Assembly: GCF_048403405.1 (NCBI RefSeq)
Contig: NZ_CP183129.1
Strand: one strand, 5' to 3'
Length of the DNA stretch: 64,000 nt
Origin: Escherichia coli
GTDB taxonomy: Bacteria; Pseudomonadota; Gammaproteobacteria; Enterobacterales; Enterobacteriaceae
This document shows, piece after piece, positions 27,327 through 27,600 of the stretch. The notes under the pieces were generated by a model that did no database searches, had not been told where the DNA came from, and saw only the letters and a list, made by a program, of their open reading frames with translations. Numbering within the stretch: the first letter of the stretch is position 1; every line of letters begins with the position of its first letter. A program made the position numbers and the translations under genes.

Positions 27327-27434
27327 TCAGCCCCAAATCATTGCTGCCCAACGTAGCAACAGCATAGCGCCACAGATTGCCAGTAGCACCACCACCATCT
27401 TCCAGTGTTTTTTATCAAAGCGTTTAGTCGGCAT
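27327..27434 (-). CDS. yniD: Small membrane protein YniD (35 aa)
   Basis: MPTKRFDKKHWKMVVVLLAICGAMLLLRWAAMIWG; single hydrophobic helix; the track extends this frame to 72 aa from an upstream ATG. Confidence 0.55.
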   Translation of the reverse strand: MPTKRFDKKHWKMVVVLLAICGAMLLLRWAAMIWG

Positions 27435-27600
27435 ACCAGTGTCCTGCATATCTCTTGTGCGTGATAACGGAGTGTAACAAAAGGGACAGGCATCAAGGGA
27501 TTTTTTGTTATTACAGCCGTCGGGTGGCGTTGTACACCTGATCACTGTTTTTGCGGTTTATGAAAAAAATAAAATTATGTATCGATATATAAATATCTGG

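Follow-up and report, generated by a model that had tools for sequence, protein, structure and literature searches.

Cross-Genus Comparison Points to a 35-Codon yniD Inside a 72-Codon Open Reading Frame of Escherichia coli

Identity and Annotation of yniD

The minus-strand feature at positions 27327..27434 of the window, by which we mean the whole 64,000-nucleotide stretch of Escherichia coli DNA that was analyzed, can be assigned with high confidence to the known gene yniD, a core gene of the Enterobacterales that is translated from the ATG at 27434 to 35 residues, the 37 codons upstream being open by chance. It is already a known, textbook-annotated gene, and nothing is unusual in the window copy. 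The ORF listing gives a minus-strand frame at 27327..27545 with a GTG start and a 72-aa translation (MIRCTTPPDGCNNKKSLDACPFCYTPLSRTRDMQDTGMPTKRFDKKHWKMVVVLLAICGAMLLLRWAAMIWG), the final 35 codons of which encode MPTKRFDKKHWKMVVVLLAICGAMLLLRWAAMIWG. An earlier note on this DNA, which gave no strand, had singled out these last 35 codons as the real product and named the gene yniD; its coordinates and peptide were confirmed. In the raw sequence, the start ATG lies at 27434-27432 and the stop TGA at 27329-27327, and the RefSeq CDS of 35 codons plus TGA has the same coordinates. The best-matching RefSeq record, "yniD: small membrane protein YniD" (WP_001142445.1), corresponds exactly to window 27327-27434, and the same 108-nt gene is annotated in K-12 as b4535, which bears out both the name and the product length. 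The gene was reportedly defined by Hemm et al. in 2008, and a tagged YniD product is said to have been detected.

The window and K-12 YniD proteins are identical at 35 aa, start codon and 5′ leader are the same, and the gene order thrS, arpB/espL1, yniD, ydiY, pfkB is shared; at the DNA level, the two differ by one synonymous CTG/TTG change in the yniD CDS and by five substitutions across the 150 nt upstream. UniProt entry YNID_ECOLI is the exact 35-aa sequence, which was found on at least 1000 contigs, and the 501 bases around the site are present at 90–100% identity in 5416 of 5426 complete E. coli genomes. Under the 72-codon stretch, every sampled RefSeq genome annotates the 108-nt yniD and nothing else, and for this reason we regard the longer frame as a mechanical ORF. 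The earlier note had described a longer annotated frame and had placed the gene among small membrane proteins that are frequently unannotated or mis-started. Neither description fits yniD: current RefSeq annotates the 35-codon CDS only and calls it correctly in all sampled E. coli genomes, and extended calls occur in a few older GenBank records, such as an E. albertii 63-aa "transmembrane anchor protein."

The gene sits in the orthologous position, downstream of and divergent from thrS (30023-31951, plus strand) and convergent with the ydiY-pfkB pair (ydiY, 26516-27274, plus strand; pfkB, 25300-26232, minus strand). Both ydiY and pfkB are found beside yniD in the window and in every Enterobacteriaceae locus except one, whose sequence ends just past yniD, and thrS lies upstream wherever the fetched flank reaches that far. 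Immediately upstream of yniD in the window is an espL1/arpB-type effector gene (27601-29500, minus strand) with a ShET2 N-terminal domain and ankyrin repeats. This gene is split into ORFs of 493 and 150 aa by an indel at 28046-28053, attributable to a T-run that is one T longer than in strain TUM14771, whose espL1 is intact; over the 4994 bases compared, the two sequences are otherwise 99.96% identical. The split gene is either a pseudogene, as is K-12 arpB, or the product of a homopolymer sequencing error.

The YniD Family

The NCBIfam model NF041491 ("membrane_YniD," "small membrane protein YniD"), an equivalog model of 34 positions with a cutoff of 40 bits, matched the product at 85.7 bits, with residues 2-35 covering profile positions 1-34 in full, and the product has both the 35-aa length and the C-terminal ...LRWAAMIWG motif of the family. 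When the 72-aa translation was searched, NF041491 matched residues 39-72, and the N-terminal 37 residues were matched by no family. A profile search of 1.84 billion representative proteins returned only 30 matches, in most of which the matched part ends at the C terminus of the protein or begins at its residue 1. The named YniD members belong to Escherichia, Leclercia, Lelliottia, Tatumella, Serratia, and Lonsdalea, and the range of the family extends from Escherichia to Serratia, Pantoea, Rahnella, Tatumella, and Lonsdalea. It is a narrow family, restricted to the Enterobacterales. No model in the copy of Pfam-A searched matched the 35-aa protein. A precomputed Pfam accession, PF28032.1, is attached to nearly all YniD homologs in the protein database (P0001-P0031), and that family is presumably newer than the release searched.

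The Start Codon

Orthologous loci were collected from one genome per species, which yielded 80 loci spread over a dozen or so genera of the Enterobacterales (Escherichia, Citrobacter, Enterobacter, Lelliottia, Kluyvera, Yokenella, Trabulsiella, Huaxiibacter, Pseudenterobacter, Entomohabitans, Rahnella, Pantoea, and Erwinia). A start codon occupies the aligned yniD start position in 78 of the 80 (ATG in 60; GTG in 18, from Pantoea/Erwinia), and the encoded YniD is exactly 35 aa long in 74. Upstream of this position, an in-frame ATG, GTG, or TTG is wholly absent from 38 loci, and 19 have an in-frame stop within five codons; stops lie one to eight codons upstream in many genera and, in several Enterobacter loci, just one codon 5′ of the ATG. 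The peptides that would be translated from the upstream DNA are unrelated from genus to genus. Even in the nearest Escherichia clades, the region contains indels: in Escherichia sp. MOD1-EC7003, the upstream 22 codons are open and have no start, and the E. albertii extension is largely different from that of E. coli. At the yniD start position itself, Citrobacter sp. NCU1 (L021) has ATT, and Pantoea rodasii (L078) has a 1-nt deletion that shifts the likely start to the ATG of the preceding codon; both cases could reflect either variation in the start codon or faulty assembly.

Selection on the short frame is visible among the 76 distinct CDS sequences, for which pooled pN/pS is 0.21 in the yniD frame, compared with 1.4 and 2.2 in the other sense frames and 0.38–4.3 in the antisense frames. 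Of the 35 columns for each codon position, 22 vary at position 1, 13 at position 2, and 33 at position 3. Judged by alignment, then, the cross-genus comparison clearly favors 35 codons over 72, and the check that the earlier note had suggested, conservation of the two frames in relatives, upholds the shorter one. The same data bear on the reading that the region is untranslated and has been conserved as a regulatory element, RNA or DNA, lying between thrS/espL1 and ydiY. Third-position variation dominates, pN/pS is low in one frame only, and start codon, Shine-Dalgarno (SD) sequence, and stop keep a fixed spacing across the 80 loci; a search of 26500-30200 found no Rfam family at E ≤ 1, and a review (PMC12529367) credits Treitz et al. 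2016 with the detection of YniD by mass spectrometry. We regard an untranslated element as having a vanishingly small probability.

Translation of the full 72-codon frame from GTG 27545 would place a Cys-rich N-terminal extension (C-x6-C ... C-x2-C) ahead of the transmembrane helix. Within E. coli proper, the extension is open in 9/9 sampled strains, in K-12 an ATG follows the GTG by two codons, and espL1 is followed by yniD with no obvious terminator between them, so that read-through RNA could carry the GTG; the few GenBank records that annotate extended forms are also on this side. However, a random 37-codon stretch stays open with a probability of (61/64)^37, or ∼0.17, so that ∼17% of such stretches would be open by chance, and six of the seven variable sites in the E. 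coli extension would be nonsynonymous. The 35 yniD codons of the same nine strains show two synonymous changes and the conservative L27V of CFT073. The extension's zinc finger-like Pfam similarity is subthreshold noise (E 0.04–0.06, 13.7–14.2 bits versus cutoffs of 25.8–27), and the extension lies wholly outside NF041491. No SD sequence is found upstream of GTG 27545 (AAACCGCAAAAACA), and outside E. coli the frame is closed or has no start. Comparison of the sequences has already largely refuted the 72-codon reading, which we consider extremely unlikely.

The history of the locus bears on the same question. Outside E. coli, in the remaining Escherichia clades and the other Enterobacteriaceae, the divergently oriented thrS starts ∼290–520 nt upstream of yniD; E. 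coli has espL1/arpB inserted between the two genes (∼27490-30000 in the window). Homology between the window and espL1-less loci starts ∼55 nt upstream of the yniD ATG, just 5′ of a −10 motif described below. From the position of this boundary, the distal half of the 72-codon frame is lineage-specific inserted DNA, absent from other Escherichia, and the insertion left the putative yniD core promoter intact. Given the comparison, the lack of an SD sequence, and the lack of a family, the 37-codon extension (27435..27545, minus strand) is best described as noncoding 5′ UTR, promoter, and upstream DNA; these codons would be yniD's own 5′ UTR and promoter together with DNA brought by espL1. A more speculative proposal joins two ideas: that in espL1/arpB-bearing E. 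coli, read-through from espL1 leads to occasional initiation at GTG 27545 (ATG in K-12), producing a de novo YniD isoform of 71–72 aa with a Cys-rich cytoplasmic head, and, separately, that the invariant interface motifs of YniD mark it as a dedicated subunit of a conserved inner-membrane complex. We consider this proposal highly improbable; if it were true, the extended isoform would have been born when insertion of an island placed new DNA in frame with an older micro-gene.

Expression Signals

An SD core, AGGA, can be read directly from the sequence at 27442..27445 (minus strand), 7 nt 5′ of the ATG, and a 4-nt SD core is present between −18 and −4 in 73 of the 80 orthologous loci. The position of this element also bears on a possible 40-residue isoform (MQDTG plus YniD), which would initiate at an in-frame ATG five codons upstream (27449-27447), either alone or beside the 35-residue form. 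That ATG is present in 9/9 sampled E. coli strains, and an in-frame ATG at −5 is also found in two Lelliottia/Huaxiibacter and four Rahnella loci. Yet the codon overlaps the SD sequence that serves ATG 27434, its own purine run (AAGAGA) is weak, its counterpart in the nearest Escherichia clade is ACG, most genera have no such ATG, and the family profile starts at the residue after the 27434 start codon; we judge the 40-residue isoform very unlikely and retain ATG 27434 as the start.

Farther upstream, cross-locus comparison revealed an extended −10-like element, TGTTACACT (TGnTAnACT), at 27471..27479 on the minus strand. The element fits TGnTATAAT, the consensus of extended −10 promoters. TGnTAnACT begins 37–45 nt upstream of the yniD start in 52 of 55 Enterobacteriaceae loci, where shuffled sequences lead one to expect 1.5, counts that are inflated by the phylogenetic relatedness of the loci; the sequence flanking the motif is diverged and shifted by indels. 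A standard scan for sigma-70 promoters returned none on the yniD strand, which we attribute to a weak −35 element. On this evidence, yniD is probably transcribed from the extended −10 element, with a putative start near 27463-27466 and a leader of ∼30 nt; if that start is right, GTG 27545 lies outside the yniD mRNA. The 5′ UTR is predicted to be unstructured (folding z = +1.4). The extended −10 promoter would thus drive yniD, its short leader would carry the SD sequence, and ATG 27434 would be read.

Between the convergent ydiY and yniD, terminator scanning and folding identified a hairpin at 27283..27307 on both strands (plus strand, −23.8 kcal/mol, z −4.4; minus strand, −17 kcal/mol, z −2.6), forming a strong terminator for ydiY but a less stable hairpin on the strand of yniD. 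It is kept across Escherichia. Genomic SELEX peaks labeled "thrS <> yniD" have been reported (PMC5493296); they were placed in a thrS/yniD spacer because the arpB pseudogene was ignored, and hence they are silent on the proximal yniD promoter. In an E. coli lineage kept in stationary phase for 1,200 days, one of the mutations that became fixed was an IS2 insertion in the arpB/yniD intergenic region (PMC7858067), an anecdotal event in the region that holds the putative yniD promoter.

yniD Loci in Other Genera

Several features of the fetched loci are recorded here in their own right. A 52-aa ORF that encodes a single hydrophobic helix (MRTMEARNKAVILLSVILAAALLLMAFEWLADQ...) is conserved in the Rahnella loci (L057-L062), where it lies between ∼182 and 27 nt upstream of yniD; no NCBIfam family covers it, and among the fetched loci it was found only in Rahnella. 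Its end, ∼26 nt upstream of yniD, suggests a two-micro-protein operon. An ∼80-aa protein (MNNRKPRRPHGRWTYYIMYEDILWPCPVRWEWENGYGGWLPFYYSP...) adjoins yniD 230–530 nt downstream of the yniD start (L057-L081), on the same strand in every Rahnella locus and convergent in all but one of the Pantoea/Erwinia-type group (L063-L081). It matched no Pfam or NCBIfam family and is absent from a truncated Enterobacter locus (L060), from all Enterobacteriaceae loci, and from the window. In the Pantoea/Erwinia group, where yniD starts with GTG, a GC-rich hairpin, GATGCGCC-loop-GGCGCATC, and a T-rich run lie 20–50 nt upstream of the gene; they come after an OsmC-like gene and a TAGAAT/TAGACT box and may either terminate transcription of that upstream gene or act as a leader attenuator. 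An extra ∼600 nt separates yniD from ydiY in loci of Enterobacter, Kluyvera, and Lelliottia, a stretch that in Enterobacter quasihormaechei (L019, 3287-3520) contains a 77-aa ORF with a signal peptide-like N terminus.

The YniD Protein

YniD is a predicted membrane protein with the single transmembrane helix and basic N-terminal flank that the earlier note had described. The N-terminal flank (residues 1-12) contains five K/R and one D, the hydrophobic core (residues 13-27) has a Kyte-Doolittle mean of 3.04, and AlphaFold2, run with 44 distinct orthologs, predicted one helix over residues 3-34 with a mean pLDDT of 83. The positive-inside rule, applied to the basic flank, puts the N terminus in the cytoplasm; YniD is accordingly predicted to be N-in, with a C terminus that would just reach the periplasmic face and R28 near that interface. 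Conservation is concentrated in K9-HWKMV-14 and R28-WAAMIW-34, together with L17, I20, C21, and A23; R28, W29, A30, A31, I33, and W34 are invariant among the 44 distinct ortholog sequences. Helical periodicity of this conservation is not significant (P = 0.30), and there is therefore no evidence of a single binding face. A PDB sequence search found YniD in no solved structure; the similarity to the integrin beta-3 transmembrane helix that it returned is a chance match (E above 1).

Significance and Comparison with Known Small Proteins

This case shows how calling the longest ORF over-extends a real micro-gene and how a simple cross-genus comparison settles the start codon; it has little significance beyond annotation hygiene. 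YniD is conserved in several Enterobacterales families, and finding its partner would be a modest but real gain. We tentatively suggest, by analogy and at somewhat less than an even chance, that YniD binds and modulates a larger inner-membrane protein as an accessory or regulatory partner. Contact would be made through the near-invariant segments K9-HWKMV-14 and R28-WAAMIW-34, one at each membrane interface. The gene neighborhood across the fetched loci showed no consistent functional partner for YniD.

The E. coli inner membrane contains several small single-pass regulators, each known with its target: MgrB (PhoQ), AcrZ (AcrB), MgtS (MgtA), and CydX (CydAB). YniD has no sequence relationship to any of these four and is encoded in E. 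coli outside any operon with a membrane complex. Like them, it is smaller than 50 aa, has a single predicted transmembrane helix, has a putative promoter and an SD sequence of its own, and is confined to the Enterobacterales, and it is because of these traits shared with the MgrB/AcrZ/MgtS/CydX class that a comparable mode of action is suggested for YniD.
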